Source: Escherichia phage naam. From it: a DNA stretch of 64,000 nt. Location of the stretch: the sequence record MN850630.1; one strand, given 5' to 3'. Below the pieces are notes generated by a model. That model had not been told where the DNA came from. It saw nothing but the letters and a program-made list of their open reading frames with translations, and did not search any database. Positions 8,024 to 23,219 of this stretch are shown here, piece by piece (position 1 is the stretch's first letter; each line of letters begins with the position of its first letter). The translations under genes and the position numbers were made by a program.

Positions 8024-8052
8024 TTGACTATTGTTACAAAATTTGGTAAAAT
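8024..8052 (+). promoter_or_regulatory. Sigma70-like promoter (TTGACT-17-TAAAAT)
   Basis: -35 at 8024-8029, -10 at 8047-8052; shares aaaatttggtaaaata with the promoter at 2513. Confidence 0.55.
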
Positions 8053-8085: not shown

Positions 8086-9576
8086 GTGGCTAAGTATGGA
8101 TTGACAGAGGCTGGTTTCGTTATACCAACCCTAAATGACCTAATCGTTGAAACTAAGCAAAGCCTGATCCGTGCTTTTGGCGAAAACTTCAACGTACAGA
8201 GTAACTCCGTTGCAGATAAGCTGACCACTATCTTCAACGAGCGAGAGTATCAACTTATTCTTATGGCAGCATCTGTATACGCATCACAGACGCTGTATGG
8301 GGCAGAAGGTATTTACCTGGATGAGCTTCTTGGAAGACAGGGTATTTACCGAAGAGGCCGTTCTAAATCATCAGGTACCTGCCAGTTGACAATCAACACA
8401 ACTGTGCCGTACAATATGATTTATGATTCCAAAACTTATACGCTGGACAGTGGCAACTTTGTTCTTAGCAACGATGTGCAAGTAGCAGGGAATCTTATTG
8501 CTCACAGAATAAATGCTCCAGACCTAAGGATTGGTAAATACAACTTTCAAATTACCAACCAGACAGATGGAAGTATCAAAACAAAAAGTCTGGTTTTAAC
8601 AGATAAGTCTCTGGACTCTTCTGATTTGCCAAGCTTTTACGGAGAGATTAAGCAATTCATTGTCGATAATACAACCCTGTTGAACGACGATTTGATTCAG
8701 GTCGATATGTTGACAGGAACGTTGTGGATAGGGTACAATTCGAATCTTGATCAAGTTGGACTTAATAGTAGAGTAGATTTCAGAGTATCCCCGATTGTAG
8801 GGGAAAGAACTATCACCCTGGATGTTATCGCTAACGAGGCTGGTGAGCTGTCAAGAGAGGCAGAAACCGTGACAACAATGTCACCTACTCCCAGTGGATT
8901 TATCAAGCTTACCAACCGAGAAAGATTCAATGAGGGCAGGGATGTTGAGAAAGACTCAGAGTATCGCTTAAGAGCTTCCAGCACAAAACAGTTAACATCT
9001 AAGGCTACCCGTCCTGCAATCCTTAGCGCTGTAAGCGAGGTGAAAGGTGTTGAGAAAGTGAGGGTGTTCTCCAACAACACCGATAAAACTGATGCTAAAG
9101 GTATACCTCCTTACAAGTTCCAAGTGGTTGTGTTTGGTGGTGCAACGGAGGACATTTGCCAAGCACTTTACCAAACTATAGCCTGTACTAACAGGACTTA
9201 TGGTAATATTTTCTACGATGTCACTACATCTGATGGTCAAACTGAAAGAATTTATTACTCCAAGGCAAATACCTACCGCCTAGATGTAAGAATTACCTAC
9301 TCCGGTGCCGCACTTTCCACAACCGAAAAAGATGCCATTGTAGAGGCTCTTTTGCAGGTTGTTAACGGACTGGATGTTGCAGATACGTTGTATAATATCC
9401 AATTGGTCGGCGCTGCATCTGCTGCTGTATCAATAGGCAGATTTAATAGACTGGTAATTCAAGTTAAACCAGTAGGAGCTTCTGATGAAGCTTACACTAC
9501 AAACGATATTGTTGCGAACATGACCGAGGTGTTTGACCTCGACGAAAGTAATATAACTTTCCAACAAACTATTTAA
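8086..9576 (+). CDS. Hypothetical virion structural protein (tail/baseplate region)
   Basis: GTG start with RBS ggagg; 496 aa; located in the tail module. Confidence 0.55.
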   Translation: MAKYGLTEAGFVIPTLNDLIVETKQSLIRAFGENFNVQSNSVADKLTTIFNEREYQLILMAASVYASQTLYGAEGIYLDELLGRQGIYRRGRSKSSGTCQLTINTTVPYNMIYDSKTYTLDSGNFVLSNDVQVAGNLIAHRINAPDLRIGKYNFQITNQTDGSIKTKSLVLTDKSLDSSDLPSFYGEIKQFIVDNTTLLNDDLIQVDMLTGTLWIGYNSNLDQVGLNSRVDFRVSPIVGERTITLDVIANEAGELSREAETVTTMSPTPSGFIKLTNRERFNEGRDVEKDSEYRLRASSTKQLTSKATRPAILSAVSEVKGVEKVRVFSNNTDKTDAKGIPPYKFQVVVFGGATEDICQALYQTIACTNRTYGNIFYDVTTSDGQTERIYYSKANTYRLDVRITYSGAALSTTEKDAIVEALLQVVNGLDVADTLYNIQLVGAASAAVSIGRFNRLVIQVKPVGASDEAYTTNDIVANMTEVFDLDESNITFQQTI

Positions 9577-9587
9577 GGCGGCGAGAT

Positions 9588-10274
9588 ATGGCAGAGATTA
9601 AGTCGGATGTTAACCACATCCACACTCTGCCAGATTTTGTTCAGGGAGGTCTTGACTACCTGCCTGGAGATTTTCTGGCTGAGAAGGTTAATTTGGTCAC
9701 ATTCTTAACCGTGTACCTTAAAAGGTTGGAGGATGTTGATAAGATGCTGGTAGGTTTGGCTGAAGGAAGATTGCTTAACAATGCCAGCGGAAGATACCTT
9801 GACGAAGTTGGTAATCAACTTGGTATTCTTAGGAATGGACTTTCAGATGCTGATTTTCGTGCCACACTAATTATTCAGCAGGCCGCAGCATCAAGGGGCG
9901 GGACTCGCGAAGATGTCATCTCCACCTTGCGACAATTGTTCGGAAGAAACAATTTCGATACGTGGAAAGGAGACAACTTCAGGTTTGACATAAATATTAG
10001 AAAAACTTGCTTTGACATATTGCAGTCTATCGATCAGATCTTAGATATGCTACCATTGCCTTGTCATTTGCGTCTTACAGAATCGCAAGGGCAAGCTTTT
10101 GGTTTTGAAGGGGACCATACAGCTCTTGGCTTCGGATCAGTGTGGGAAGAAAACCAATTCGGAGTTGGTGGGCTGGCTACTTTGCTGTATGTTCCTGACG
10201 TAAGACCTGATTGGGACACCACAACCATTTATTGTGAAAGTATTACAGTAAACGCAACTAGACAGGAGGGTTAA
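9588..10274 (+). CDS. Hypothetical structural protein
   Basis: ATG with RBS; 228 aa; translationally coupled to the next gene (ATG overlaps stop). Confidence 0.55.
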   Translation: MAEIKSDVNHIHTLPDFVQGGLDYLPGDFLAEKVNLVTFLTVYLKRLEDVDKMLVGLAEGRLLNNASGRYLDEVGNQLGILRNGLSDADFRATLIIQQAAASRGGTREDVISTLRQLFGRNNFDTWKGDNFRFDINIRKTCFDILQSIDQILDMLPLPCHLRLTESQGQAFGFEGDHTALGFGSVWEENQFGVGGLATLLYVPDVRPDWDTTTIYCESITVNATRQEG

Positions 10275-12346
10275 TGGCAACAGCTATTTTTAAACCTTAC
10301 CGTGATTACTCTACAATGGCTGCACGGTTTCATTACCGCACAGTTCAGGATACTGCCGTTCCTGGTAGGGATTATAATCATGTTGAGGGTGATGTAACTA
10401 TCCCAATTGGGGCAACCAGTATTGAGATCCCAGTGGAAATTGTTGACAAATTACCCAACAGGTTGCCAAGAAGCTTCTTTATGGAGTTTTCATCAAAATC
10501 TCAAGGGGTGATGATTGGAACACAAAGGGCGAAATGTACAATAGTTTCAGATGAGAATCTTGACAGGATATCTTGGGATACTGTCGAGGAGAGAATGTTT
10601 CACCCAAGATATTGGGTTACAACTACCCAGCAGACTGAAAGCACCTGTATTGTTGCAGATAATAACTGTTGTATTAACCGTTTAGTGTCAAGAACATATG
10701 GAGGTATGGCTGGGTGCATTTGGGAAACAGTTGACAAGTATGACCATTTCGGTATTGGGTTTGATGATCATTATGAGATGAGAAATACCAAGCTTTGGTT
10801 CAGAATGTCAATAACCAACGCCAGCAACTTCTCCACTCCTGAAAAGATGATTATGACTGTAGACCTTGTTGATGGCACAATCATCTATGTTCCTTTAGCT
10901 CAATATGCTGTCAGCATCTCAGAGGATAAGAATGTTGCAGAAATTCATATTGATTTCGAGGACTGCGTCGGGATGGACCAGAACAACAATATGATGGGTG
11001 TTGATCCTCGACAGGTGAGAAGGATTTTAATACCGCTTATGCCTAAAGATTGGGTAAGCAATAGCACAAACCCAAGAACGGAAAATGTAGAGTGTGAGTT
11101 GCGCCTAGATCTGCTTCAGCCAGACACAGGCTGGAAAATGATGCAACTTAACAATATTCAGGTGAAAGAACACGACGTTGGGATCTGCACAGCATATGAC
11201 GATATGTGGAACGTGTCTCCTTTAAGGGTGTTGAACAATATCAAGCGTCTGGGCTATACCGGAACCATAAACCATTATGTTGGTATGAGTCATTATTATG
11301 ACTACACATGGTCAGGAACTCAATGGTCTATAAACAGAACAGGAGCGCTAAACGCTGCAGCTTATAAATGGCATGATGATTTTATGTACAATGCCAAACG
11401 ACATAACTTCGACGTTATGCAATCTGTAAGTTTTGAGCTTTTCAGCGATGCCTGCCCGTTGGAATGGACCCAAAGAGACTGGAACGATAACTACGCTAAA
11501 ACAGGGTATACACCTTGTAGCTACCTCCTGTCTCCAACCATTGAAGAGGGTATGAATTTCCTTACTGCAGTATTTAAGAATTTTGCATCAGCCGCTATGA
11601 GAAACAACCTGCCAGTGATTATGCAGGTTGGTGAACCGTGGTGGTGGTACAATACCGATACTCGTAGACCTTGTATTTATGATTACCCTACAAAGCAGGC
11701 GTTTTATGATGAGACAGGTGAGTATGCATTAGATATTGGGACTATTGACGATCCTAAAACTGGCGGTGTTTACGACAAGTATGTAGCATTTTGTCGTGGT
11801 AAGCTTGGCGCTCGTATTGCGGCTATTTCAAAGGCAGTAAAGGCACACGCTGCATCAGCTCAGATGACAGCTTTGCTGTTTTTCCCAACCATTATGGAAA
11901 CCGAGCTTACGCAAAAGCTGAACCTTGCTGACCAATATAAAAAGGAAGCAGGTGCTCTTGATTTCTTCTGCACTGAGTGCTACGATTGGGTGATGCAGGG
12001 AGGTATTGAAAAGGCAAAAGAGTCTGTAAACATACCTATCGTTAAGTTAGGTTGGCAACCGTCTGAAATACAATACCTTGCAGGGTTCGTTCCTAGTAAA
12101 GAGCTTGCTCCGGTATATGGCTACGACCCAACTAGGAATTACCAAGAATTTTTATGGAGATGTATTTGCGGAAACATGGCAACTATAGAGTATAGATACC
12201 CTGAGGTAAAACAGTATGTATGGGCATATCCGCAAGTAATGTCTGACAGCATCACTGTTACCGCTAGAGATTCTACCGTGCTTCATATGGGGCAGGTTGC
12301 TCTGAAAGGGTATGTAGAAGATGTTGTCCCGCCAGACTTCTCATAA
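10274..12346 (+). CDS. Hypothetical large tail-associated protein (possible proximal fibre or tailspike component)
   Basis: 690 aa ORF with RBS aggagg; directly upstream of the side-fibre/Tfa cassette. Confidence 0.55.
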   Translation: MATAIFKPYRDYSTMAARFHYRTVQDTAVPGRDYNHVEGDVTIPIGATSIEIPVEIVDKLPNRLPRSFFMEFSSKSQGVMIGTQRAKCTIVSDENLDRISWDTVEERMFHPRYWVTTTQQTESTCIVADNNCCINRLVSRTYGGMAGCIWETVDKYDHFGIGFDDHYEMRNTKLWFRMSITNASNFSTPEKMIMTVDLVDGTIIYVPLAQYAVSISEDKNVAEIHIDFEDCVGMDQNNNMMGVDPRQVRRILIPLMPKDWVSNSTNPRTENVECELRLDLLQPDTGWKMMQLNNIQVKEHDVGICTAYDDMWNVSPLRVLNNIKRLGYTGTINHYVGMSHYYDYTWSGTQWSINRTGALNAAAYKWHDDFMYNAKRHNFDVMQSVSFELFSDACPLEWTQRDWNDNYAKTGYTPCSYLLSPTIEEGMNFLTAVFKNFASAAMRNNLPVIMQVGEPWWWYNTDTRRPCIYDYPTKQAFYDETGEYALDIGTIDDPKTGGVYDKYVAFCRGKLGARIAAISKAVKAHAASAQMTALLFFPTIMETELTQKLNLADQYKKEAGALDFFCTECYDWVMQGGIEKAKESVNIPIVKLGWQPSEIQYLAGFVPSKELAPVYGYDPTRNYQEFLWRCICGNMATIEYRYPEVKQYVWAYPQVMSDSITVTARDSTVLHMGQVALKGYVEDVVPPDFS

Positions 12347-12358
12347 TCAGGAGATAAA

Positions 12359-13399
12359 ATGTCAAAACCTAGTTTTCCATTAGAGATTTGGGCAGAGGAG
12401 GATCAGGTTCTGCCTAACACCCACAGACAGAACAGGCTACGCCCGATTGATGATTTGTGGAGAAAAGGTTGGGATCTTGGTCAAAAGCCCTCATGTGAAG
12501 AACTTAACTATATTTTCAATATGCTCGGAACTTGGGCAAAATACATTGCTGACGAGCAGATCCCCGCTCAAGAAGGCCGTTATCTGGTACGTGATAATAA
12601 CTTGAGTGATCTTTTGAACATTCCTGTTGCCCGTAGAAACCTTGGGATTATTACTAGGGAAGAGGCAGACGCCAGGTATGTAAAAGTTACAGGTGATACA
12701 ATGACAGGCCCATTGGGTTTGCAACGTATCAACTTTAAAGCTGCCGAGACAGATAAGGCTTGGATAGAGACAACTATTGGCCCAGATAAGACAACTCTCG
12801 ACTTTGGGTTAAGTGATAATACTGGGGCGTTTGATGATGGTGGCACATCTACAATAGATGCGTTTCGTTGGAGATTCCAGCCAACTCAGCCGGATATTAA
12901 TCCGGAGTTCACTTTGATGTACCTTAACGCGATCACGGCTAACCGTGCGCTGTTGAAAGTGGTAGGCAATGTTGAAGTTGTCGATAACATGAGGTGCAAT
13001 AACCTTACTATCAGCAATACCGCAACATTCACCAACTGTAATGTGGCCAGTCAGTTGACGGCTGGGTCAGTATATGTTAATGGTGGTGCAAGTTGTGACA
13101 GTATGGTTGTAAGAAGCCAGCACTGTGTTGTAGGTAACAGAAATGTGGTTCGCTCCGTGAATGGAGTGACGGCTAACGGTAACGGTGATGTAACGATCAC
13201 TATCCCGCAGACAGGTGTGCAAGACATCAGAATCGGTGCAAGACTTGTGGACGGCGTTTCTGAATCTCCAATCCGCAACGGATACGTTGTCACAGGCTGG
13301 CATTTCGGTGACAAAAAAGAGATGCGTGGTTCAACCTACTGGGCAGGACCTTTACAAAAACTTGTAAATGGTCAATGGATCACTGTTAATTATGCATAG
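12359..13399 (+). CDS. Side tail fibre protein (distal, receptor-binding part), copy 1
   Basis: Followed by a Tfa-family gene; paralog of 14414-15457 with conserved N-terminus and C-terminal YWAGPLQKLVNGQWITVNYA. Confidence 0.7.
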   Translation: MSKPSFPLEIWAEEDQVLPNTHRQNRLRPIDDLWRKGWDLGQKPSCEELNYIFNMLGTWAKYIADEQIPAQEGRYLVRDNNLSDLLNIPVARRNLGIITREEADARYVKVTGDTMTGPLGLQRINFKAAETDKAWIETTIGPDKTTLDFGLSDNTGAFDDGGTSTIDAFRWRFQPTQPDINPEFTLMYLNAITANRALLKVVGNVEVVDNMRCNNLTISNTATFTNCNVASQLTAGSVYVNGGASCDSMVVRSQHCVVGNRNVVRSVNGVTANGNGDVTITIPQTGVQDIRIGARLVDGVSESPIRNGYVVTGWHFGDKKEMRGSTYWAGPLQKLVNGQWITVNYA

Positions 13400-13413
13400 A
13401 TCGGAGGACTAGC

Positions 13414-13998
13414 ATGAAAATACTTCAAGAGTTTAAACTTTACCAACCGGGATCTGGCGAATACCACTCCAACAAGGAAACCAAGGAGCTGACCCCTCAA
13501 GAGGTCGAGGATTACACCGCATACACTGGGTATTTTTTACGTAATGATGATGGTGATTGGTATGTGCAGTCACGAACATTACGACAAGAAAATCCAGGGT
13601 GTATTTTCCTACTTGTTGACGAGAAGGGAATTCTTAAGACATCTACAGAAGAACCTGATGCCTTATGGCCTGCTCCAGGTCTTCGTGTGGTTATCGCCAA
13701 AAAAGAAGAGGTACCAGAAAACATTATGCTTCACCACGACGCTTTGCGTTTAGTTGGTGATAAATTTGTCACAGACAATGAATTCTTTGTTCAACAGGCA
13801 GAGGGTGTCATAGAGACAGAACTTGCTTGGGCTACTGCTAGAATTGGTGCCTATCAAGACATGATTGACCTTGAATATGATCTTACTGATGACCAGAAAC
13901 GTAACATCAGAGATTTGAAAATGTACAGGGTAAAACTTCTTGAAATAGATACATCTAAAGCCCCTGACATTTTCTTCCCGGAGCGACCTACCCTCTAA
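13414..13998 (+). CDS. Tail fibre assembly protein (lambda Tfa family)
   Basis: 194 aa; C-terminal YRVKLLEIDTSKAPDIFFP matches the conserved lambda Tfa C-terminus (YRVLLNRVDTSTAPDIEWP) as I recall it. Confidence 0.75.
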   Translation: MKILQEFKLYQPGSGEYHSNKETKELTPQEVEDYTAYTGYFLRNDDGDWYVQSRTLRQENPGCIFLLVDEKGILKTSTEEPDALWPAPGLRVVIAKKEEVPENIMLHHDALRLVGDKFVTDNEFFVQQAEGVIETELAWATARIGAYQDMIDLEYDLTDDQKRNIRDLKMYRVKLLEIDTSKAPDIFFPERPTL

Positions 13999-14009
13999 GA
14001 GGAGGTGTT

Positions 14010-14324
14010 GTGGAGTTGGATTTGGCGGCATTGTACGGTATCTGCATGGGTACCGTTGTCCCGATCTGTGTATGGGCTTTCAACCAGTGGCACACCAAAT
14101 GGAAAGGCATTTCCAAGAGGTTGGATGAGCTGGAGAAAGACCTCATCTTAGTGAAAAACAGTATGGTTACAAAAGATAAACTTGATTCCGTTATAGAGAC
14201 CCGGTTAAGCAAGCTAGAGGCCGATATTAACGACCTTAAGCAGGATGTCAGGACAGATGTCTCCGGCATCAGAGCCGATGTACAAAAGATTTTGCACATG
14301 CTCGTAGAGCATAGTAAAAGGTAA
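14010..14324 (+). CDS. Hypothetical membrane / coiled-coil protein
   Basis: GTG start with RBS aagaggagg; N-terminal hydrophobic segment then coiled coil. Confidence 0.5.
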   Translation: MELDLAALYGICMGTVVPICVWAFNQWHTKWKGISKRLDELEKDLILVKNSMVTKDKLDSVIETRLSKLEADINDLKQDVRTDVSGIRADVQKILHMLVEHSKR

Positions 14325-14333
14325 ACAAAGGTC

Positions 14334-14366
14334 AGAACGGAAAGGACTCCGTTCTTGCATTTTGTT
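14334..14366 (+). terminator. Candidate intrinsic terminator
   Basis: agaacgg-aaaggact-ccgttct hairpin followed by tgcattttgtt. Confidence 0.5.
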
Positions 14367-14413
14367 CCCTAAAGTGTTAAAATAGTCCTAAGGAATTTTC
14401 TCAGGAGAACGTG

Positions 14414-15457
14414 ATGACTAAACCAGTTATCCCTCTTGATATTTGGGCCAATCAGGATGTTGTGCTTGAAAATACGGGAGAGTTGAATAAGTCTCAACCA
14501 AAAAAGGAAGAGAGATTGAAAGGTTGGGATATGACACAAAGAGTGGCATGTGAAGTTGTTAACTTTGAACTTCACATGCTTTCTGCGTGGTTAAAGCATT
14601 TAACAGAAGATGTTGTCCCAGGATGGGATAATAGATTCTTAAGGGTCACTAATAATCTAGCAGACGTTCCAGACAAAGCTGCTGCACGTCAAGTTCTCAA
14701 TGTATACTCGCCTGAAGAAATGGACGATCTGTATGTTGACAAGTCTGGAGACATAATGACTCAGACTCAAACTTTAGGCCTTCAAAGAATCGAGTTTGCA
14801 TCTGCGTCAACAGACAATGCGGCAATATATACCACCATAACTCCAGACAAGACGACGATGGACTTCTGGATTATGGACAACATCGGTGGTGCTGACGGCA
14901 CAGACCTTGATGATCCTTCTCACCAAATAGACGGGTTCCGTTGGAGATTTCAACCTTCTGGTGGGCAGCCTGTGTTTTCGGCTATGAAGCTCAATGCTAT
15001 AACTGCCAACCGTGCAAGACTGGCTATCCAAGGAAATCTTGAATGCAACGATGCAAAAAGTTCCTCTGCAAATGCCAATGCGGTCACGATACCAAGAGCC
15101 ACTGTTAACGGACAACAATCCTGCGGAAGCGCTCAAATAGGTGGAAGAGTTGATTGTAACGATGAAACCGTTAGAGGCCAATATGCAACCGTTGGTGGAA
15201 GAAACGTGGTCCGCAGGGTAAACGGTAACAGCGCAGACGGTAGTGGTAACCTTACTGTCCCTATGCCCAGTAGAGGGGTTGACGATGTAAGGATAGCGAA
15301 CCGTTTCAAAACCACCTACAGAGAGTCAAGAGTCTACCCTGGACATGTGATGTGCTCTGGTAACTACGCTTATAAACACCCTTATCAAGGTGATTACTGG
15401 ACAGGTGCTATCCAAAAACTTGTAAACGGTCAATGGATCACTATATCTTATGCTTAA
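14414..15457 (+). CDS. Side tail fibre protein, copy 2 (paralog, no cognate Tfa immediately downstream)
   Basis: ATG at 14414 with RBS aggaga (track start GTG 14411); paralog of 12359-13399 with diverged central region. Confidence 0.7.
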   Translation: MTKPVIPLDIWANQDVVLENTGELNKSQPKKEERLKGWDMTQRVACEVVNFELHMLSAWLKHLTEDVVPGWDNRFLRVTNNLADVPDKAAARQVLNVYSPEEMDDLYVDKSGDIMTQTQTLGLQRIEFASASTDNAAIYTTITPDKTTMDFWIMDNIGGADGTDLDDPSHQIDGFRWRFQPSGGQPVFSAMKLNAITANRARLAIQGNLECNDAKSSSANANAVTIPRATVNGQQSCGSAQIGGRVDCNDETVRGQYATVGGRNVVRRVNGNSADGSGNLTVPMPSRGVDDVRIANRFKTTYRESRVYPGHVMCSGNYAYKHPYQGDYWTGAIQKLVNGQWITISYA

Positions 15458-15468
15458 AAAGAGGGTAA

Positions 15469-15735
15469 ATGAAACTAACTCAGTTTTTATGGGGACTGGT
15501 TGCGGCATCTGATGACCCTACGAAAGTATCCCAATCTAAGCTATGGTCGAACATAGGCATGGCGGTGATGACTGGGGTGTTTATTCATATGGGGTATAAT
15601 GATACGCTTCCTGAATGGTATGCGTGGATATACGCGCCTTCAGTAGCTTGCCCCCAGCTTATTAGCAAATTCATCTCGCTCCGGTGGGGTTGCCAGCACC
15701 CTGACCACGTTAAAAACGAAGAGCAAAAAGCTTAA
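15469..15735 (+). CDS. Hypothetical small membrane protein
   Basis: 88 aa with one hydrophobic segment; RBS agaggg. Confidence 0.45.
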   Translation: MKLTQFLWGLVAASDDPTKVSQSKLWSNIGMAVMTGVFIHMGYNDTLPEWYAWIYAPSVACPQLISKFISLRWGCQHPDHVKNEEQKA

Positions 15736-15744
15736 GGAGAAATC

Positions 15745-17490
15745 ATGGCGCAAGACATGACAAGCTTTGAGCAGGCGGTAGATCAAGTAATTGTTGATTC
15801 TGAACGTTTGCACCTGATTGTCAACGGTAACGCTGTGGATGAAGTTGTCGTAGAGGATGGGACCACCATCCCTACGGTACGAAAAGCCATGCTTGACACC
15901 CTTTATTTTAAAACGCCACCGATCCCTTGGGCGTATGGTGCATCCACAACAGTTTTTAACCAGCTGTACGAGTTTAAGGGGGACACAGGCCCTCAGTGGT
16001 GGTACGCTCCCGCAGCATCAAAATCTAACCCGGTTAGAATGCCAGCAGATCCTTCACAATCTCCAAACTGGAGATTATATACCGATTCTGCAGTAATGGC
16101 AAAATACTACGCAAAACTTAACAGTCCGAGGTTCGAAGGTGACCCGCGAGTACCTACGCCTCCAATGGACGACAAATCCGAGTCTATAGCAAACACAGAG
16201 TTTGTTGTTGACTATGTGGATAGCATATTTGAAGCCATGGAGGGAATGAAAGTTACTGTAGGGTCTTTGGTGGTAAAAGGTCTTACAGAACTTGCTAACA
16301 CTATAGTTGGTGGCACACTCACCTTACATGGGCCTGTTAATGGAGCAGATTCTACTGCACGCTTCAGGAACCTAATCCTCACGGCAAATACTTCTACACT
16401 TACTTTTGCGTGGAGCGATCCTAAGCATGCAGACTGGAGAAGTACAGAGCTGCAACCTCATGAAGTGTCCACCCACAGGGTTATAGCTGACACTATAACT
16501 TCTGGGAAACCAGTGGCTAATAATAACGATGTGCATTTTGATGGTCTAGGTAATAACTTTTTTGACTACGTGTACATTCGTGGTAATGCCATGAAGGCAG
16601 CAACCGAACCGACATTGCAGGTCGATGGGACCGCCAGGGTTAAGAACCTTGAGGTGACAGGCACCGTTACAGGGATAACCTACTCTGTCGATGGCACCAT
16701 GATCTACCCTAGCTATATTGAAAGCACTGGTGATGCATTAATAAATGGCGATTTAGAGGTTGGTGGGTCTGTAGTTATTCGAGGTACAGCCTCTATCCAA
16801 AACATAGCTCTGAATACCCTGAGAGTCAATGAGCGTGCAACTTTTGAAGGGGAAGGGCTTACAGCCAACAAAGGCATAATTACCGAGCTGACAACAACCA
16901 CTTTAACCGCAACAACTGCAAACTCTGAAAACTGCAACGTTACCAGAAACTTGCAGGTAAATGGGGATGTTAGTTTAAACGCAGCAGGGACTGGCACCAC
17001 CTACCTTCACAACCTTGAAATATCCGGCACAGTGACTGGGTGGCTGCCAGACTTCTCTAATGTCAACTTTGTTTGTAATGGCATTAACTCCAGTGGTAAG
17101 ATAACCACCTCTCAAGAAATTGAGGCGGGTAAAACCATTACTGCCCCTACTTTCCACGCAGGAAAGGTAGATTTTGATTTAGAGGAGGTTGACGCGTCCA
17201 GTGGGACATGGACACCTAACGGGCAGGCCAGCATGTATGTTGTCCACGCGAAAGGGGATTTTACAATAGGGCAATGGCCTGGTACATCAGCGGAAGATAA
17301 ACCTTATCCATTCACTGCAGTTATCTATGTCATTCAGGATGCTGTAGGTCACAACGTGACTTTGCACGATAAGTATGCTATCCTGTCGGCAACACCTGTT
17401 ATTAACAACAAGGCTAACAGTGTTACCTTGCTGCAATTAACGTATTGTGGTGTTGGTGATATTGTAGACGTAGTAATTGCACAACGTTAA
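15745..17490 (+). CDS. Tail fibre / tailspike-like protein
   Basis: 581 aa, Thr/Ser/Gly/Asn-rich repetitive beta-type composition typical of fibres; RBS aaggag. Confidence 0.6.
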   Translation: MAQDMTSFEQAVDQVIVDSERLHLIVNGNAVDEVVVEDGTTIPTVRKAMLDTLYFKTPPIPWAYGASTTVFNQLYEFKGDTGPQWWYAPAASKSNPVRMPADPSQSPNWRLYTDSAVMAKYYAKLNSPRFEGDPRVPTPPMDDKSESIANTEFVVDYVDSIFEAMEGMKVTVGSLVVKGLTELANTIVGGTLTLHGPVNGADSTARFRNLILTANTSTLTFAWSDPKHADWRSTELQPHEVSTHRVIADTITSGKPVANNNDVHFDGLGNNFFDYVYIRGNAMKAATEPTLQVDGTARVKNLEVTGTVTGITYSVDGTMIYPSYIESTGDALINGDLEVGGSVVIRGTASIQNIALNTLRVNERATFEGEGLTANKGIITELTTTTLTATTANSENCNVTRNLQVNGDVSLNAAGTGTTYLHNLEISGTVTGWLPDFSNVNFVCNGINSSGKITTSQEIEAGKTITAPTFHAGKVDFDLEEVDASSGTWTPNGQASMYVVHAKGDFTIGQWPGTSAEDKPYPFTAVIYVIQDAVGHNVTLHDKYAILSATPVINNKANSVTLLQLTYCGVGDIVDVVIAQR

Positions 17491-17499
17491 TATATCTAA

Positions 17500-17526
17500 C
17501 CGCTCCTGACGGGGCGGTTTTCTTAT
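17500..17526 (+). terminator. Rho-independent terminator
   Basis: ccgctcc-tgac-ggggcgg hairpin (one G-U pair) followed by ttttcttat. Confidence 0.65.
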
Positions 17527-17538
17527 CTGGAGAACACA

Positions 17539-20500
17539 ATGCTTCCAATCCCTTTGCTAAAACTTGGTCGTCATTTCCTCGATAAGAGGGGTGGAATTAA
17601 GGAACTTGCTGTTCTGTCATACCCAATAGACAACAGTGATGGTACAAGCAACACAGTATCCTATGTAAATAGCTTAGCTATACTTTTTGATGATGGTCAG
17701 CTTAATATTACTGGCTATAATAGGTTCGGAGAGTGTCGGACTGGAGATCTTGATACAATAAACTATCCTAATGAGGCAGCTTGGAACGTAGACCATGTTT
17801 GGAGAGCTGACCGTGCATTTGTAATCCGCACATTCGATAATAAATTTTTCTATATTGGTTGCACAGCTGGTCTTATCGGATCGGAGGCAGCAGGTGGAAA
17901 CGATGTTTGTGTCAGAGAGTGGACACCTTTGCCGGAACAGATCGTAACAGGGTTGCATTTGGACACCCATCCTGAGAGACTTGTTGAAGTAATGGGTGGC
18001 GTAAACAATACAGTGTGGGTAATTGCTGCACCAGAGGCTGATGGTATGCTTCACCTGTACGGCTCTGGCAATAATACTTACGGCTCTCTTCATGTTGACA
18101 AAAGTCAACACGCTACTCCAGTTAAGATCGGTGAAACATCTGAAAGTCCAGAGACAGGTCCTTGGAAAAATCCAAGAATTAATTGTGAAGTTCATGACAA
18201 CTCGGTTATTTTTGGTGGTCCTAACGGATTCTGGATTGCAGGTTACGATTTCTTAAGAAATAACAGCAAAAACACACTAGTTTATCCAGCCGAGCATGTG
18301 ACTCTTGACCAGTTTAAAGGCATCCCGGTGGGCGAGACATGGAAAGGGTTCATGTGTGGACCTAATGGTGCAATTATAGCCACAGAAAGGATGCACAAAC
18401 CTGATGACCAACAGCTTGTTAATGTGTTTTATGGTCAGGATGTTTGGGGTGACGACACGTGGAGAAGCCTTAACATCACCTATACCCATGAAGTAATTAT
18501 GGCTCGTGGATACGGCACAAGTGGCATTTTCTTCAATAATGGCACCAAACAGTATCGTGGCTTCTCTCGCAATCTGTGCAATGATATTGGTGCACAATCT
18601 GCAAACAACAGTCCTAGGGCTAATTTTATTCACTATCAGGCTCTGGCTACGGCTAAATACGTCGAGCAACGGATGCCAGTAAGCTGGACAGAAAGTGTTT
18701 ATTTCCAGGGTATCCACAGGGAAGGTTTCTTAGGCACATTCTGTGTGGTAAATGGAAAGCTTTGGTGGTCAGGAATACCACGTGGTAGTTTTTCAGGATC
18801 TAATAACCTCTTTGGCGGCAGACTTAACAGCCAAGGGTTCACAGAGATTCCGGAGAATTGGTATAAAAATGTCCCGGTAGATAGCTGGGGTATCGAAGAC
18901 ATCTTTGATGTCAATGGTGTGAGCAATGTTAGCAACATTTACATCGGAGATACTGTCAAGATGAAATTGAAACCTCAGCCGGAGGGTGCTACGTTCATTA
19001 TTGACAAGATTGAGTTGGTAAATGCTGCAGGCACTGTTGTTACAGATGCAAACTATCAGTTCTCCACTAACTGGAACCATGGTGGTGCTAACGAAGTTGT
19101 GGTCACCCAGTATAACCGTAACATCAACAGACGTGGTTTGTATTCTATCAAGATCACCTACCATGACAAGCATGGCACTGGAAGAACCTATACGACAAGG
19201 ACTTTGAACTGGAACACTATAGTTCCTGCGTATCCGTCCAACGGCAAGTGGCATACCGTTGGTAGAAACAAGCAGTTCCATGTTAACGATACTGTATACT
19301 TTGGGCTGAATGGGACCCAGCCTGCAGTAGAAGGGGATACATCGTATATGGTCAGACTCCACAGAATGGATGCTGGATCAGTCACTTATGATGTGACCCA
19401 AGAGATCTACGATCAAAGACGCGCCACGTATGACAATATTGTGAAAACACAAGCCTTGTGGGAGTTCAATCCTAATGGCAAGGGTGGTAAAATGTTGCAG
19501 GTTAATGAGCAGAACGGAACGTCGTTGACTGTTCACGAACACCCAGACCCTTGGCCTGATCCTGGAAAACCTCACCCGGGAGCTCGTACACTGAAAATTG
19601 TCAGCCATGATGCAGGATATTTCGGAATACGCTGGGAAGCTACAGTAAGATATGTCGACGGGACAACAAACAACATAGGGATTACACTTGGCGGCACTAG
19701 TGAAGATAACTCGCTGAAAATTGCCTACACGCCCAGAGGTATCTCTATTGATAATATGGATGTTGTTCGCAATGGTTACGGCGATGTGAATGTCAAAGTT
19801 ACTCTTGGCGAACATCTTGGTGGGGAAAGGATCATCATGTATGCCTTTGATCATGATCCACGCACCAATGGAACTTATGCAAATCAGGCATGGAGTTACC
19901 TGATAAATGCACCTGAGCCGAATACTAAAGAGTTCTACTATGGTATGAAGCGAGATGTGTGCAAGAAAACAGGAACACATGACTGGATTGCTATCTGCGT
20001 TAAAGATGAGCGCACAGCTTGGGATGAACCTGTTAACAGATGGTTCATAGGTATTCCTACCAGAAGTGATAAGTATGTCGCAGAATATATTGTATGCATG
20101 GGTGGTACCAACCTGAACATGTGTTGGAACGAGGATGCAAACAAATACTCTGATTATGACTATATGAGGGATTACTCTTGTAATTTGTGGTTTAACCAAA
20201 CTACAGGTTACCCTCCAAGACAGGCGAGAGTAAACCCTGCAATCTTCACAGACACGCAGGTTTTCTTGACAAAACAGGCCAACGAGGTTCAGACCTTCAA
20301 GAATAAATACGATCCTAACAAGTGGTTCTACAACTGTTACGGCGCATTTTTCTGGGGACCTGGTGAGTTACCTGGTGGGGGATCTTGCTTGAATGAGGCA
20401 ACTTACGCAAGTGACTACATCATGGGGCAGGTCAAGAAGTATAAGATAATCCCCGGTCCTGAGACTTTGGGCAATGCCGTTGACCCTTATATCATCATGA

Positions 20501-23175
20501 CTGCACTGAGATCAAACATGGATGGGACATCCATGTCCATGCAAATTCCGGTAACAAACGGATACAAACGTGTTGTGATGATCATTAAGTGCGACCTGAT
20601 AGGTAAACAAGTTCTTGCAGAAAACGGGACATCCACACATCCTTTTGAGATCGCTCTGCACTATCAGTTTGCTGACTCACCTTTTGCAGGGGATAAGAGA
20701 ATATCTGATACAGACGCACAGCGTTGTAAGAAAGTCTTGTTGGGTGCAGGTTGGTGGTGGTATGAGTTTGATTTAACAGACAAATTCACCGACACGTCTA
20801 AAGTTGTAACAGGACTTCGTCTAGACCTTGGCGAGAACATGCACAAAGCTGTTTGTGATGGCACCTATGGTGACCCTACAATATACCTAAAATATGTTTC
20901 TTTTGAGCATCCGGAAGATGTTGTCTACGGTCCAAAACTGAGATTGTTTGGCAGCTGGATTGCAAAAGATAGGGTAGGCATGGGTAAGAAGGTAAGAGGG
21001 TTCTTGGTTGATGCAGGAACAGAAGACATGCTGGTTAATGCAGTATGGCCTGAATTACCTGGGACTCAGTGGGACAACTCAGCCAAATCTATAAACTGGT
21101 TTAACATTCATAGGGCCATGTGGACCACTAACTGCTACTTGTGGAGAGAGCTTAACGATCAGGCCTTTGGATTCAGCGATGGTAGAAGGATGGCGATCAT
21201 TTGCTGGACAACACTGCAAAGATGTTATGACCATGACTATGAGATTGGGGGCAGGGCATGGAAAAATATCAGGGATAGAATCATAACCAATTTTGCAGAC
21301 GACAACGGTGGTGGAGCACATAACTTTGGCACAAGCCGACTCATCCATTTGAACGGATCCTCAGCCTACAAGAAAGAAGGTTACTCTGGGTCTATGATCG
21401 AGTGGGGTCTGGTGAAAGATGCTCGCGTATTGATGGGCCAGCAACTTGCTGCCGCAATAGGTCCCAGCGCAGTGCAGTCGGTTAAACCAGCGTGGTTCGA
21501 TATTCCATTGTGGTCACCCGGAACACCGGGAACTGCTGCAATCAACCCTACCACTGGGGATCTAGAAATCTCCTGGGAGGACTTGAAGCAGGTCGGCGGT
21601 TGGGACAAAACAGGGTACCAGGTTCAGTGGTGGAGAGCTGATGGATCTTTAGCTGCTGATGAGTTTGTTAAGGACAATTTCTACACTATGTCCTCTGCAA
21701 AAGCACAGCAATTATTTGGTCAGGCAACTCCGTCAACGATCACCATGTCTATGTGCTGTAAAGACAACAGGACTGGAGCTTTGGGGCCAAGGGTTGCTAA
21801 AGTTTTCTCAGGTATTAAATGGAATCTACCTGTCCAAAGTATTTCATGGAAGCAAATAGGTGATAACAAGCTGCTGGTTACCCCTGCCTGTCAGTTCAAC
21901 GCAACTCTTAACGTTGATCCTGCTGTTGCGGCAAACTCAGCTAAAGCTTCTGACTTCTCTGTGTCTAACACTGCTATGGCAGATGTGAGGAAGATTGACA
22001 CGCTGAACGCCAGAATTACCTGTAAAAACACTTATGGCACATTCCAGATCATCAACAACTTCACAGATGCTGATTCTAAGGTAGTGAGGACAGCAAGCCA
22101 GACTTTGAGTTTAGGAACTCTGGCCTATGCGGCCCTGATCACTGAACAGTCGGCAACACTCCAAGGAGGTGGTGTAGGCAAGTCCATTACAACACCTGTG
22201 TGGAAGCCAAATGAGTGGGTTGTGTTTGATTTGACTGTGGACTTCTCCAGCGATAATAACTGGACATGGGTAAGGAATTGTTTGTCACAGTTGATGGGCG
22301 GTCCAAGCTCCGTTAGTGATAGTCACGACTCTACTGACCCGAGTGTGTTCCAGGTAGGTAAAACTCACCCAGAGACTGGAGAAACGTTGCCTGACAGGAA
22401 GTATGCTTTGGTTTGCATCTCTTACGGGAAGGCAGATGTCACCTTCTCAGGGACACACACTTATAACGGAACCTACAACTTCTCAAGGAAGTATAGTCTC
22501 AAAGCAGGGAACATTATAGACGAGGTTGGTGTGCTGTATAATCCGGGCAACGGCATAGGGATTGTGGGTGGTAAACTGCAGATGCAGGAACCTTCTATTA
22601 CCCCTTCCAACGTATCCGGGATTAGAAAGACTTGGGAAAGTAGTAATACCAACATTGCAACAGTGGATGCCACCACAGGACTGGTAACATTTAAAGCTAT
22701 TGGGAATGTCACCATAAAGTTTGTAGTTACAGATGATGCAGGGCGCAAAACGTCTTCAACATCTTTTACTGTCAAACAGATGGCACCACAGTGGAGAATG
22801 TGGATAGGTACAGCAACAAACGGGGCATACCCTAATCCGGCAGGTACTTCTGGTATGAAGACTTTCTCTACAAGCAAACCGATGGAGTACGGCAGCGGTC
22901 CTAAGGTAGGGCAGATGGTGTACTTTGGTGCGTATATTCCTGAAATTATAGGGCTTCCTAGAAGTCAGCTTCAGTTGCTGTTTGGGGCTGGTGTTGACGA
23001 TCTTGCCACTTTCGGGTATAGCGACAACATCGAGGCTGCAAGGAGTTCAGGATGGGTAGGGTTCAGAATGGAGTCTGGAAAGGAAGGCAGGATTCTAGGG
23101 ACAGCCTCTATAGGTGTTATGTTCCCTGGTGACCAGCAGTATCGTCTAGAAGCCTACGCAACCTTTTCTCGTTAA
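17539..23175 (+). CDS. Giant (1878 aa) putative virion host-recognition protein with Big_2-like Ig domain near the C-terminus
   Basis: Single uninterrupted ORF; segment ITPSNVSGIRKTWESSNTNIATVDATTGLVTFKAIGNVTIKFVVTDDAGRKT resembles bacterial Ig-like group 2 domains; ends at a bidirectional terminator. Confidence 0.65.
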   Translation: MLPIPLLKLGRHFLDKRGGIKELAVLSYPIDNSDGTSNTVSYVNSLAILFDDGQLNITGYNRFGECRTGDLDTINYPNEAAWNVDHVWRADRAFVIRTFDNKFFYIGCTAGLIGSEAAGGNDVCVREWTPLPEQIVTGLHLDTHPERLVEVMGGVNNTVWVIAAPEADGMLHLYGSGNNTYGSLHVDKSQHATPVKIGETSESPETGPWKNPRINCEVHDNSVIFGGPNGFWIAGYDFLRNNSKNTLVYPAEHVTLDQFKGIPVGETWKGFMCGPNGAIIATERMHKPDDQQLVNVFYGQDVWGDDTWRSLNITYTHEVIMARGYGTSGIFFNNGTKQYRGFSRNLCNDIGAQSANNSPRANFIHYQALATAKYVEQRMPVSWTESVYFQGIHREGFLGTFCVVNGKLWWSGIPRGSFSGSNNLFGGRLNSQGFTEIPENWYKNVPVDSWGIEDIFDVNGVSNVSNIYIGDTVKMKLKPQPEGATFIIDKIELVNAAGTVVTDANYQFSTNWNHGGANEVVVTQYNRNINRRGLYSIKITYHDKHGTGRTYTTRTLNWNTIVPAYPSNGKWHTVGRNKQFHVNDTVYFGLNGTQPAVEGDTSYMVRLHRMDAGSVTYDVTQEIYDQRRATYDNIVKTQALWEFNPNGKGGKMLQVNEQNGTSLTVHEHPDPWPDPGKPHPGARTLKIVSHDAGYFGIRWEATVRYVDGTTNNIGITLGGTSEDNSLKIAYTPRGISIDNMDVVRNGYGDVNVKVTLGEHLGGERIIMYAFDHDPRTNGTYANQAWSYLINAPEPNTKEFYYGMKRDVCKKTGTHDWIAICVKDERTAWDEPVNRWFIGIPTRSDKYVAEYIVCMGGTNLNMCWNEDANKYSDYDYMRDYSCNLWFNQTTGYPPRQARVNPAIFTDTQVFLTKQANEVQTFKNKYDPNKWFYNCYGAFFWGPGELPGGGSCLNEATYASDYIMGQVKKYKIIPGPETLGNAVDPYIIMTALRSNMDGTSMSMQIPVTNGYKRVVMIIKCDLIGKQVLAENGTSTHPFEIALHYQFADSPFAGDKRISDTDAQRCKKVLLGAGWWWYEFDLTDKFTDTSKVVTGLRLDLGENMHKAVCDGTYGDPTIYLKYVSFEHPEDVVYGPKLRLFGSWIAKDRVGMGKKVRGFLVDAGTEDMLVNAVWPELPGTQWDNSAKSINWFNIHRAMWTTNCYLWRELNDQAFGFSDGRRMAIICWTTLQRCYDHDYEIGGRAWKNIRDRIITNFADDNGGGAHNFGTSRLIHLNGSSAYKKEGYSGSMIEWGLVKDARVLMGQQLAAAIGPSAVQSVKPAWFDIPLWSPGTPGTAAINPTTGDLEISWEDLKQVGGWDKTGYQVQWWRADGSLAADEFVKDNFYTMSSAKAQQLFGQATPSTITMSMCCKDNRTGALGPRVAKVFSGIKWNLPVQSISWKQIGDNKLLVTPACQFNATLNVDPAVAANSAKASDFSVSNTAMADVRKIDTLNARITCKNTYGTFQIINNFTDADSKVVRTASQTLSLGTLAYAALITEQSATLQGGGVGKSITTPVWKPNEWVVFDLTVDFSSDNNWTWVRNCLSQLMGGPSSVSDSHDSTDPSVFQVGKTHPETGETLPDRKYALVCISYGKADVTFSGTHTYNGTYNFSRKYSLKAGNIIDEVGVLYNPGNGIGIVGGKLQMQEPSITPSNVSGIRKTWESSNTNIATVDATTGLVTFKAIGNVTIKFVVTDDAGRKTSSTSFTVKQMAPQWRMWIGTATNGAYPNPAGTSGMKTFSTSKPMEYGSGPKVGQMVYFGAYIPEIIGLPRSQLQLLFGAGVDDLATFGYSDNIEAARSSGWVGFRMESGKEGRILGTASIGVMFPGDQQYRLEAYATFSR

Positions 23176-23184
23176 CAAGGGGGT

Positions 23185-23219
23185 AAATAAAAAAGGGGCC
23201 GTTTGGCCCCTTTCTTTTT
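23185..23219. terminator. Bidirectional intrinsic terminator between convergent gene blocks
   Basis: A-tract, ggggcc-gttt-ggcccc hairpin, T-tract; sits between the + strand giant gene and the first - strand gene. Confidence 0.85.

Follow-up and report, generated by a model that had tools for sequence, protein, structure and literature searches.

In the locus studied here, two copies of a Mu-type baseplate fibre gene, both old and conserved, are accompanied by a single assembly chaperone. The locus is the one for short tail fibres that has been described before in rV5-like E. coli phages. It lies in a 64,000-nucleotide stretch of Escherichia phage naam DNA (the window), which is that of a Vequintavirus, an rV5-like coliphage (99% nucleotide identity). 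The reading that we consider probable is that the two genes are ancient paralogs of the Mu gpS type, that both function as late structural genes, and that their products are incorporated together into the virion, neither being switched nor swapped. New with respect to the literature are the position of the second fibre gene in place of a gene for a 157-aa membrane protein, the existence of deeper clades with two copies, the concerted evolution of the fibre tips, and a conserved hairpin; no new kind of system is revealed.

Two paralogous fibres and one chaperone

The gene arrangement was published earlier for rV5 as gp33/gp32/gp31/gp30 (Kropinski et al. 2013, PMC3606486). For the Vequintavirinae sensu stricto, a pair of paralogous short tail fibres with a chaperone has been described (Maffei et al. 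2021, PMC8594841, S5D Fig). Phage rV5 has the gene set and order found here, with ~98-99% nucleotide identity to the window (98.7% for the first fibre gene, STF1, and 97.3% for the second, STF2). Already on record for rV5 are an inter-copy identity of 42-43%, the lone Caudo_TAP gene, a gp31 with one TMD and the late promoter P030, and nothing essential differs between the two loci.

Table 1. Features of the short-tail-fibre locus and its flanks, in window coordinates.
Feature	Coordinates	Strand	Description
Upstream late-unit promoter (rV5 P036)	8024..8052	+	TTGACT-N17-TGGTAAAAT; scan, motif search, regex
STF1 (rV5 gp33)	12359..13399	+	ORF, 346 aa; phrog_4465 E 5.5e-171 (full-length member)
Tfa chaperone (rV5 gp32)	13414..13998	+	194 aa; Caudo_TAP family, Pfam PF02413
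p104 (rV5 gp31)	14010..14324	+	104 aa; N-terminal transmembrane segment then coiled coil; phrog_5345 E 1e-48
Conserved hairpin	14334..14355	+	AGAACGGA-AAGGAC-TCCGTTCT; 8 bp stem; end of upstream unit (putative)
STF2 promoter (rV5 P030)	14355..14383	+	TTGCAT-N17-TGT-TAAAAT, extended -10 type (predicted)
STF2 (rV5 gp30)	14414..15457	+	347 aa; phrog_4465 E 5.4e-166 (full-length member)
p88 (rV5 gp29)	15469..15735	+	two predicted transmembrane segments; phrog_1322 E 2.7e-32
Terminator-like hairpin (rV5 t028)	17498..17519	+	after 581-aa fibre gene; Kropinski 2013 Table S4 (PMC3606486)

That the fibre gene is duplicated, as the original prediction held, was confirmed by BLASTP, which aligned STF1 and STF2 end to end at 43% identity (E 1e-95), and by the membership of both in phrog_4465; the two are true paralogs. 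The expected pattern of shared ends around a divergent centre was found only in part. Identity is low at residues 206-260 (28%) and peaks at residues 116-205 (59%) and 261-295, but identity in the N-terminal anchor is only 40% and in the tip, at residues 296-330, only 26%, so the divergence is not simply central. The motif QKLVNGQW was invariant in all eight fibres compared. At the shared 3' end, 10 of 13 codons are identical in the window against 44 of 131 elsewhere (Fisher p 0.003), a difference that was not significant in the related lineages L010 and L013; this is suggestive of gene conversion between STF1 and STF2 there. The second open reading frame (14411/14414-15457) was also recovered, with its length corrected from 348 to 347 aa: translation is assigned to the ATG at 14414, for which the AGGAG at 14403-14407 has the right spacing, and rV5, Murica and JES2013 have GCG in place of the upstream GTG at 14411. 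AlphaFold2 monomer models built from a 10-sequence alignment were unusable (mean pLDDT 32.3 for STF2 and 37.1 for STF1).

The genes had been labeled side tail fibres, a name that does not suit them, as an N-terminal anchor of the phiTE STF type and a tip of the Mu gpS type identify them as baseplate short tail fibres. In phmmer searches of PDB sequences, the STF1 N-terminus matched residues 1-111 of the phiTE STF (9CUY; E 1.4e-19) and its C-terminus matched residues 440-501 of Mu gpS (E 1.9e-6). The STF2 N-terminus matched the same phiTE anchor (E 2e-8); STF2 alone gave no significant match to Mu gpS in this search, and it aligns to STF1 through the tip. With a family profile, E values were 4.6e-25 for the phiTE STF anchor and 1.8e-10 for Mu gpS.

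The STF1 gene lies directly after the baseplate wedge genes and directly before the Tfa gene. The same placement is seen in phi92 and phiTE, whose fibre (fibre III, gp147, in phi92) has a homologous baseplate anchor, points downward and has a proposed role in irreversible adsorption. These phages have one fibre copy where naam has two; moreover, the phiTE fibre is a 554-aa protein with a coiled coil and Ig-like domains in a flagellotropic phage, and the middle of the phi92-type shaft is unrelated to that of the naam fibres. STF1 is 51% identical to the Av-05 fibre (STF2, 40%), its tip is 51-60% identical to the tips of Av-05, Seunavirus and phAPEC8-type phages (STF2, 35-38%), and it retains the ancestral tip motif TGWxFGxKKExRG. 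Position and sequence alike make STF1 the ortholog of phi92 fibre III and of the one short tail fibre that other Vequintavirinae have; its tip, the ancestral one, presumably binds the LPS core. STF2, which is flanked by p104 and p88 instead of wedge genes and Tfa, is the derived paralog and evolves faster than STF1. It has a lineage-specific tip, CSGNYAYKHPYQGD, and an altered anchor: the motif RPIDDLW, common to STF1, every single-copy ortholog and the solved phiTE STF, is replaced by QP.KE in every STF2 (QPKKEER here), and anchor residues 25-35 read RPIDDLWRKGWD in gp33 (STF1) versus QPKKEERLKGWD in gp30 (STF2).

A single chaperone of the Tfa family, following the first fibre copy only, was likewise upheld. 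Residues 121-192 matched Caudo_TAP (PF02413) with 45.9 bits against a cutoff of 22.1, phrog_136 was matched with an E of 1.5e-36, and tblastn placed the gene at exactly one location per phage record in 226 records. The gene begins 15 nt past the STF1 stop codon and is not adjacent to STF2. Since a phmmer search of PDB sequences gave no meaningful match for Tfa, its link to Mu gpU comes from Pfam. By analogy with Mu gpU/gpS, the single Tfa would fold both fibres by acting at the fibre C-terminus, the presumed site of action, where QKLVNGQW is invariant in both copies. In an uncultured sister clade, termed clade B (Logan runs SRR24653873 and SRR32732957), Tfa is 47% identical, and where Tfa differs both fibre tips differ together.

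Amongst known fibre systems, Mu gpS/gpU (PDB 5YVQ, 9KI1) shares the homologous C-terminal receptor-binding domain, a Caudo_TAP-family chaperone gene immediately downstream of the fibre gene, and an LPS-core receptor. In Mu, S/U and S'/U' alternate by G-segment inversion with a chaperone for each fibre, whereas the naam fibre genes are co-oriented, probably both expressed, served by one chaperone, and accompanied by no invertase. Lambda Stf/Tfa and P2 gpH/gpG have the PF02413 chaperone family and the fibre-then-chaperone order in common with naam, but their fibres are long, with different anchors, and the chaperone is not shared with a second fibre gene. T4 gp12 is a functional analogy only, a baseplate fibre with which T4 adsorbs irreversibly by binding the LPS core. 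Similarity of gp30 and gp33 to T4 gp12 was reported from HHpred (Kropinski 2013, PMC3606486); we found no sequence match between gp12 and the naam fibres, and T4 has one short-fibre gene and the chaperone gp57A, not Tfa.

Gene order and predicted transcription units

As predicted, a 104-aa membrane protein, whose N-terminal hydrophobic segment precedes a coiled coil, sits between the fibre copies. Every related genus examined (Av-05, TH18, a Seunavirus, GAP31 and a phAPEC8-like phage) has a homolog of p104 after the chaperone gene, and the single-copy relatives share the order STF-Tfa-p104-p157-p88-fibre. The slot of STF2 is that of the gene for p157, the 157-aa membrane protein, in every other Vequintavirinae genus; no Vequintavirus record contains this gene, and 107 records of other genera do. 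STF2 has taken over the place of the conserved p157 gene. Homologs of p88 occur in all related genera and are conserved within the fibre module; the protein shows zero amino-acid changes relative to 7 loci at dS values of up to 0.23, and its gene would be in one transcript with STF2. Searches of Pfam and PHROG assigned no function to the membrane proteins of 104, 157 and 88 aa. A reading of these small proteins as a spanin-like or holin-like lysis cassette was considered and not adopted outright, because the rV5 lysin (gp89) and proposed holin (gp129) are encoded elsewhere in the rV5 genome.

A terminator-like hairpin had been proposed ahead of the second copy. The hairpin itself is conserved and covarying: its stem energy ranges from -10.6 to -13.3 kcal/mol, a compensatory change from A-T to C-G is found in L010, L011 and L013-15, RNAalifold on seven lineages gave double changes at four of the seven pairs, and AAGG persists as the core of the loop (AAGGAC, AAGGAA or variants). 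As to the terminator part, the tail, UUGCAUUUUGUU, is a poor U-tract that also serves as a -35 box; TTGCATTTT, directly after the hairpin, is not a good U-tract but provides a conserved promoter with its -35 box. ARNold called no terminator at this hairpin in rV5 (PMC3606486, Table S4). The element may be a weak terminator, or else it may mark an RNA 3' end or act in regulation.

The promoter sequence, P030 in rV5, retains identical hexamers, the 17-nt spacing and the TGn element in seven lineages whose intergenic regions have otherwise diverged (TTGCAT-N17-TG(T/C)-TAAAAT, 29-37 nt from the ATG). A motif search matched it at 14375-14384 (rV5 'late' motif TggTAaAAtA), only four sites of this type were found on the + strand of the window, and it is catalogued as a late promoter in rV5 (Kropinski 2013 Table S4, PMC3606486). 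As the conserved hairpin abuts the conserved P030, STF2 would open its own late unit from this putative promoter. The P036 sequence, also given in Kropinski 2013 Table S4 (PMC3606486), precedes the wedge gene at 8086 and, from its placement, most likely drives gp36-gp35-gp34-STF1-Tfa-p104. STF1, Tfa and p104 would then be the tail end of an operon that starts at the wedge-gene promoter and is closed by the conserved hairpin, and the predicted extended -10 promoter after the hairpin would start a second unit consisting of STF2, p88 and the 581-aa fibre, with t028 as its likely end.

Age and conservation of the pair

Both copies were present in 113 of 116 Vequintavirus records, and the two-copy order is kept in the deeper uncultured lineages L018-L021. 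In anchor and shaft trees, all STF1s group together and all STF2s group together; between the clade of the window (clade A) and clade B, identity is 48-52% for STF2 and 72-73% for STF1. These comparisons place the duplication that gave rise to STF2 before the deepest rV5-like lineages found and before the split of the known ones; STF2 replaced the p157 gene. In 10 related loci the five open reading frames are all intact and constant in length, with dN/dS of 0-0.11 (STF1 0.02-0.11, STF2 0.04-0.07, Tfa 0.02-0.10, p104 0-0.04). Both fibre copies are under strong purifying selection.

These observations bear directly on the suggestions that the host range is switchable or that the second copy is a recently acquired cassette, neither of which held. 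Taken alone, the setting of STF2, between a hairpin plus promoter and small membrane-protein genes, does look like that of a cassette. However, the pair is found in those 113 of 116 genus records and, with the same junction, in deeper clades, composition is uniform across the locus, and the copies are nearly invariant between genomes (Maffei 2021, PMC8594841; observed here too). The proposed comparison with related phages showed a pair conserved in the genus and in deeper lineages, with no donor for an exchange: a search of 50,697 phage records found none for STF2 outside the group above 41% identity. The C-terminal 136 residues of STF2, used alone as a query on a collection of 5.8 billion proteins, gave no matches; the full-length query gave matches. 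An invertible switch of the kind formed by the Mu G segment or the P1 C segment with Gin/Cin was rejected as well, as both copies lie on the + strand, each in its own promoter context, inverted repeats around them amount to short, weak matches (at most 28 nt, 71%), and no invertase or other recombinase was found amongst the neighboring open reading frames. A recent, exchangeable host-range cassette or a Mu-G-like invertible fibre system is consequently very improbable.

Roles of the two fibres

The idea of differing receptor-binding tips was sustained for this lineage. With the tips 26% identical at residues 296-330, a second receptor specificity is plausible here, and recognition of two LPS chemotypes was suggested by Kropinski 2013 (PMC3606486). 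Additionally, the terminal receptor of phage LL12 is Glc I in the outer core of LPS (PMC7229145). Both fibre types are most likely carried on one virion, where STF2 would add a second surface-glycan specificity, its anchor motif differing from that of STF1 and, in this lineage, its tip as well. Against this reading stands the single STF socket on each wedge in phi92 and phiTE.

Virion proteomic support for both fibres is ambiguous. The main text of Kropinski 2013 lists gp30, gp32 and gp33 among the proteins detected (PMC3606486); its Table S3 carries the "MS evidence" flag on gp34 and not on gp30 or gp33. In the rV5 MS table (19 proteins, PMC3606486 supplement), six STF/Tfa peptide strings were not found and the STF/Tfa molecular weights were unmatched; the flagged gp34 was unmatched too, which makes the molecular-weight comparison uninformative. 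Cryo-EM density for a Mu-like STF was reported on Bas49 and Bas54 (PMC12143355), in 7-9 Å maps for which the fitted paralog is not stated.

The sister clade limits how far a difference in tips can explain the pair. In clade B the STF1 and STF2 tips are 84-93% identical as protein and only 78-88% as nucleotide sequence, so differing tips are not the general reason for keeping the pair, and a second specificity is not a universal function of STF2. As they are closer at the protein than at the nucleotide level, it is selection, or else an old conversion, that keeps these tips the same. The differences kept across clades are those of the N-terminal anchor and shaft, including the RPIDDLW versus QP.KE replacement. 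Together with the clade B tips, they suggest that the fibres may bind the same receptor from two distinct baseplate positions or geometries (e.g., twelve short fibres or two tiers), the tip difference being secondary. We regard this as rather unlikely, although worth keeping in view: the STF2 tip of the window's clade has 32-48% identity to every known tip and is 93% conserved within the clade, which fits a distinct, selected binding function, and no structure shows a second socket.

Closer to the original prediction is an arrangement in which STF1 and STF2 compete for the same six wedge sites and yield mixed virions with dual LPS-core specificity at a stoichiometry set by the promoters. Homologous N-termini that both match the phiTE STF anchor, differing tips, separate promoters and the two-chemotype suggestion (PMC3606486) would all suit it. 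However, the anchors are only ~40% identical, the wedge-contacting motif of the relatives is replaced in STF2, and clade B keeps both genes despite the same tips, which would be pointless under pure competition; we judge this arrangement improbable.

Co-assembly of STF1 and STF2 as heterotrimers is scarcely credible. Assembly of Mu-type fibres reportedly begins at the C-terminus, and the extreme C-termini are shared, as are whole tips in clade B; yet the shafts are only 42-51% identical, with indels, the clade A tips differ, and homotrimers are the rule for such fibres.

A further reading is that the paralogs form two structurally distinct, non-interchangeable fibre sets with different docking, and that the single Tfa forces co-evolution of their C-termini. 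We put this forward tentatively, as a possibility somewhat short of even. If true, the rV5-type baseplate would carry more short fibres than that of phi92 or phiTE, and the shared chaperone would constrain the evolution of receptor-binding domains in paralogs, with tips homogenized in one clade and sharing confined to the last 16 residues in the other.

Phages of the rV5 type are amongst the commonest broad-host-range coliphage isolates and go into cocktails for therapy and biocontrol, and their terminal receptor step, at the LPS outer core, is attributed to the short fibres. Ancient copies with apparently separate promoters, one chaperone, and an ancestral versus a lineage-specific tip offer a clear design for knockout and tip-swap experiments.

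The two short tail fibres and their surroundings

The 3.1-kb fibre region was 99.3% identical at the nucleotide level to Escherichia phages 241Ecol014PP, isim and ime. At least 90% identity to it was shared by 116 phage records, almost all of them from Vequintavirus (rV5-like myophages); in 113 the match spanned at least 80% of the region. Numbers of rV5 genes were assigned to the window ORFs via the annotations of CarlMeissner/Bas48 and rV5. Separately, 16-21 GenBank MG0656xx "Campylobacter phage" records (e.g., MG065655, MG065672 and MG065635; host C. jejuni) carried an rV5-like fibre locus at ≥98% identity and further ones a phi92-like version; these records look like mislabelled or contaminant rV5-like or phi92-like coliphages.

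Features of the fibre module and its flanks (dN/dS computed against the window, 7 loci)
Feature	Coordinates	Strand	Size	dN/dS
Promoter-like site P036	8024	+		
gp34	10274-12346	+	690 aa	
STF1 (gp33), short tail fibre	12359-13399	+		0.02-0.11
3' repeat, STF1 copy	13337-13398		62 nt	
Inner stretch of repeat, STF1 copy	13355-13384		30 nt	
Tfa (gp32), fibre assembly chaperone	13414-13998	+	194 aa	0.02-0.10
p104 (gp31), membrane protein	14010-14324	+	104 aa	<=0.04
Hairpin upstream of STF2	14334-14355			
Promoter-like site P030	14355	+		
STF2 (gp30), short tail fibre	14414-15457	+	347 aa	0.04-0.07
3' repeat, STF2 copy	15395-15456		62 nt	
Inner stretch of repeat, STF2 copy	15413-15442		30 nt	
p88 (gp29), membrane protein	15469-15735	+	88 aa	0
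gp28, fibre	15745-17490	+	581 aa	
Putative terminator	17498-17519			
gp27, fibre	17539-23175		1878 aa	
Terminator-like hairpin	23192-23213			

The original prediction described a duplicated side-tail-fibre gene with a lambda Tfa-type chaperone. Paralogy was borne out by protein comparison, in which STF1 and STF2 aligned end to end (43% identity, E 1e-95), and both were full-length members of phrog_4465. The type of fibre needed revision: the N-terminus of STF1 matched the solved anchor at the N-terminal end of the phiTE short tail fibre (9CUY; E 1.4e-19, and 2e-8 for STF2), and its C-terminus matched Mu gpS at the receptor-binding end (5YVQ; E 1.9e-6, and 1.8e-10 for a profile of both paralogs), so that the two are Mu-gpS-type baseplate short tail fibres rather than lambda-like side fibres. 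In phiTE, the anchor part wraps into a joint docked on a wedge protein (PMC11972413). Phage phi92 differs in having a single homolog, gp147 (fibre III), which points downward and has been proposed to act in irreversible adsorption (PMC13450770). Monomer structure predictions of the fibres were uninformative.

The STF2 start was placed at ATG 14414, shortening the predicted 348-aa product by one residue, and the GTG at 14411 was not conserved. Shared ends with central divergence held only in part: the last 16 residues formed a peak of identity and residues 206-260 a trough, but further peaks lay at 116-205 and 261-295, a second trough fell in the tip (296-330), and the N-terminal anchor was only 40% identical.

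Upstream, gp34 contained a Calx-beta domain and the N-terminal and TIM-barrel domains of an N4-type non-contractile tail sheath protein (E 2.5e-80); it has been described as a deacetylase-like protein, with the ECA/NGR glycan as its proposed ligand. Vequintavirus, Av-05 and TH18 had this gene, and the examined Seunavirus and phAPEC8-like loci lacked it at the corresponding position, where the baseplate genes give way to the fibre gene. Downstream, the hairpin 3' of the 1878-aa fibre gene was strong and bidirectional, and at ~23-30 kb the GC skew changed sign, marking a minus-strand block of small genes.

Origin and age of the second copy

In single-copy relatives (Av-05, TH18, a Seunavirus and GAP31) the order was STF, Tfa, 104 aa, 157 aa, ~88 aa and a ~585-600-aa fibre. 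The p157 gene, encoding a polytopic membrane protein and overlapping the 104-aa gene by 4 nt in these relatives, was present in 107 records of other Vequintavirinae genera and in 0 Vequintavirus records, and a search of the window did not find it; in rV5-like phages its slot was occupied by an 89-nt intergenic region and STF2.

A protein search revealed more distant lineages (L018-L021) with the exact two-copy order, in which STF2 was 78% (L018 and L019) or 46-49% (L020 and L021, on 135-kb and 14-kb contigs; 52% and 48% in a second alignment) identical to that of the window. The latter two, here clade B, were an uncultured rV5-like sister clade from Logan assemblies SRR24653873 and SRR32732957 (loci L020 2913-6065 and L021 2872-6013). 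In an anchor tree (residues 1-110) as in a shaft tree (111-285), all STF1s clustered together, as did all STF2s, and the duplication is therefore older than the lineages compared. Between clade A (the window and L018) and clade B, divergence was far greater in STF2 (48-52% identical) than in STF1 (72-73%).

The five ORFs were intact and unchanged in length in 10 related loci, with the dN/dS values tabulated. Several features were shared by STF1 and single-copy fibres: the Av-05 fibre was 51% identical to STF1 vs 40% to STF2, the RPIDDLW anchor motif of phiTE was retained in STF1 (QPKKEER in STF2), and the STF1 tip TGWxFGxKKExRG was common to Av-05, Seunavirus and phAPEC8-type fibres and to 52-kb Salmonella/E. 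coli myophages, brunost and birk among them. The STF2 tip motif was CSGNYAYKHPYQGD, and no STF2 relative above 41% identity was found among phages outside the group. The suggestion of a recently acquired cassette failed: the second copy is old and conserved, composition is uniform across the locus, and no donor was found.

Three small membrane-protein genes were seen in the tail-fibre module across Vequintavirinae (L003 6638-7701, and p104 and p88 in the window). p104, of an uncharacterized-function family, had an N-terminal hydrophobic (TM) segment and a coiled coil, p157 was polytopic, and the ~88-aa protein, predicted to have two TM segments, ended in a charged C-terminus. The middle gene was lost in rV5-like phages, whose p104 fell to 32% identity with the others. 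p88 showed zero amino-acid changes at dS up to 0.23, and in clade B carried an acidic, RYSD-repeat-rich tail of 30-40 aa.

Fibre tips, chaperone and the junction before STF2

Tfa scored above the Pfam Caudo_TAP threshold, and the expected chaperone after the first copy only was upheld genome-wide at the sensitivity of tblastn, with a single such gene in each of 226 phage records. In clade B, the tips of the two fibres (final ~55 residues) were 84-93% identical to each other (78-88% at the nucleotide level), STF1 and STF2 being as diverged outside the tips as in clade A, which indicates concerted evolution of the tips. Clade B tips differed from those of the window in both paralogs and Tfa was only 47% identical, and thus both tips changed together with the chaperone, a pattern that fits one chaperone serving both fibres. 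QKLVNGQW was invariant in 8/8 fibres. The 3' ends of the window genes formed a direct repeat (82% identity) whose inner stretch had one mismatch and was identical in several strains; the excess of identical codons there was significant in the window only (p 0.003), with weak statistical support, and the repeat may reflect limited gene conversion or may be the chaperone-docking motif.

The near-identical clade B tips show that differing tips are not a universal reason for keeping two fibre genes. Together with the conserved anchor and shaft differences, they point to two fibres that would hold non-redundant structural places on the baseplate. Dual specificity would be compatible with the clade A tips. 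The main rival to the reading favoured below would be that the fibres differ in place and bind the same receptor.

The hairpin predicted upstream of STF2 was present. Its stem covaried (within the genus, an A-T pair was replaced by C-G; over 7 lineages, double changes occurred at 4/7 pairs), and the AAGG loop core was kept. Directly 3' lay TTGCAT-N17-TG(T/C)-TAAAAT, 29-37 nt from the STF2 ATG, with hexamers and spacing invariant in 7/7 lineages; the P036 site ahead of the wedge gene had the same architecture (TTGACT-N17-TGGTAAAAT). TTGnnn-N17-TGnTAnAAT occurred at only four plus-strand sites in 64 kb (2513, 8024, 14355 and 50645), of which the second and third match the rV5 "late" promoters P036 and P030, and the rV5 late motif appears to be a standard sigma-70 promoter of the extended -10 type. 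Judging from these elements, P036 would likely drive gp36-gp35-gp34-STF1-Tfa-p104 up to the hairpin, and P030 would likely drive STF2-p88-gp28 up to the putative terminator. A switchable arrangement was contradicted by co-oriented genes and the lack of meaningful inverted repeats or an invertase.

Published evidence and the proposed roles

The two-fibre, one-chaperone arrangement is already published. Kropinski 2013 annotated gp32 as Caudo_TAP, assigned one TMD to the membrane protein gp31 and listed a late promoter, P030, ahead of gene 30 (PMC3606486). Maffei 2021 described two paralogous short tail fibres with almost no allelic variation and one chaperone, together homologous to Mu gpS/gpU, in Vequintavirinae sensu stricto, with a single fibre copy in phi92-like phages and Phapecoctavirus (PMC8594841). 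What is new here is the replacement of p157, the age of the pair, the selection on it, the ancestral copy, the tip and chaperone pattern and the junction conservation.

RBPseg (2025) reports low-resolution density attributed to a Mu-like STF on two rV5-like phages (PMC12143355), and LL12 needs LPS outer-core Glc I (PMC7229145). The main text on rV5 lists gp30, gp32 and gp33 among the virion proteins detected; six peptide strings from these proteins were not found in the accessible part of its MS table (19 proteins), and its Table S3 carries an "MS evidence" mark on gp34 and none on gp30 or gp33 (PMC3606486). With moderate confidence, we favour a reading in which one virion would carry both fibres and the single Tfa would fold the pair, STF1 having the ancestral LPS-core function and STF2 adding a second specificity in this lineage.
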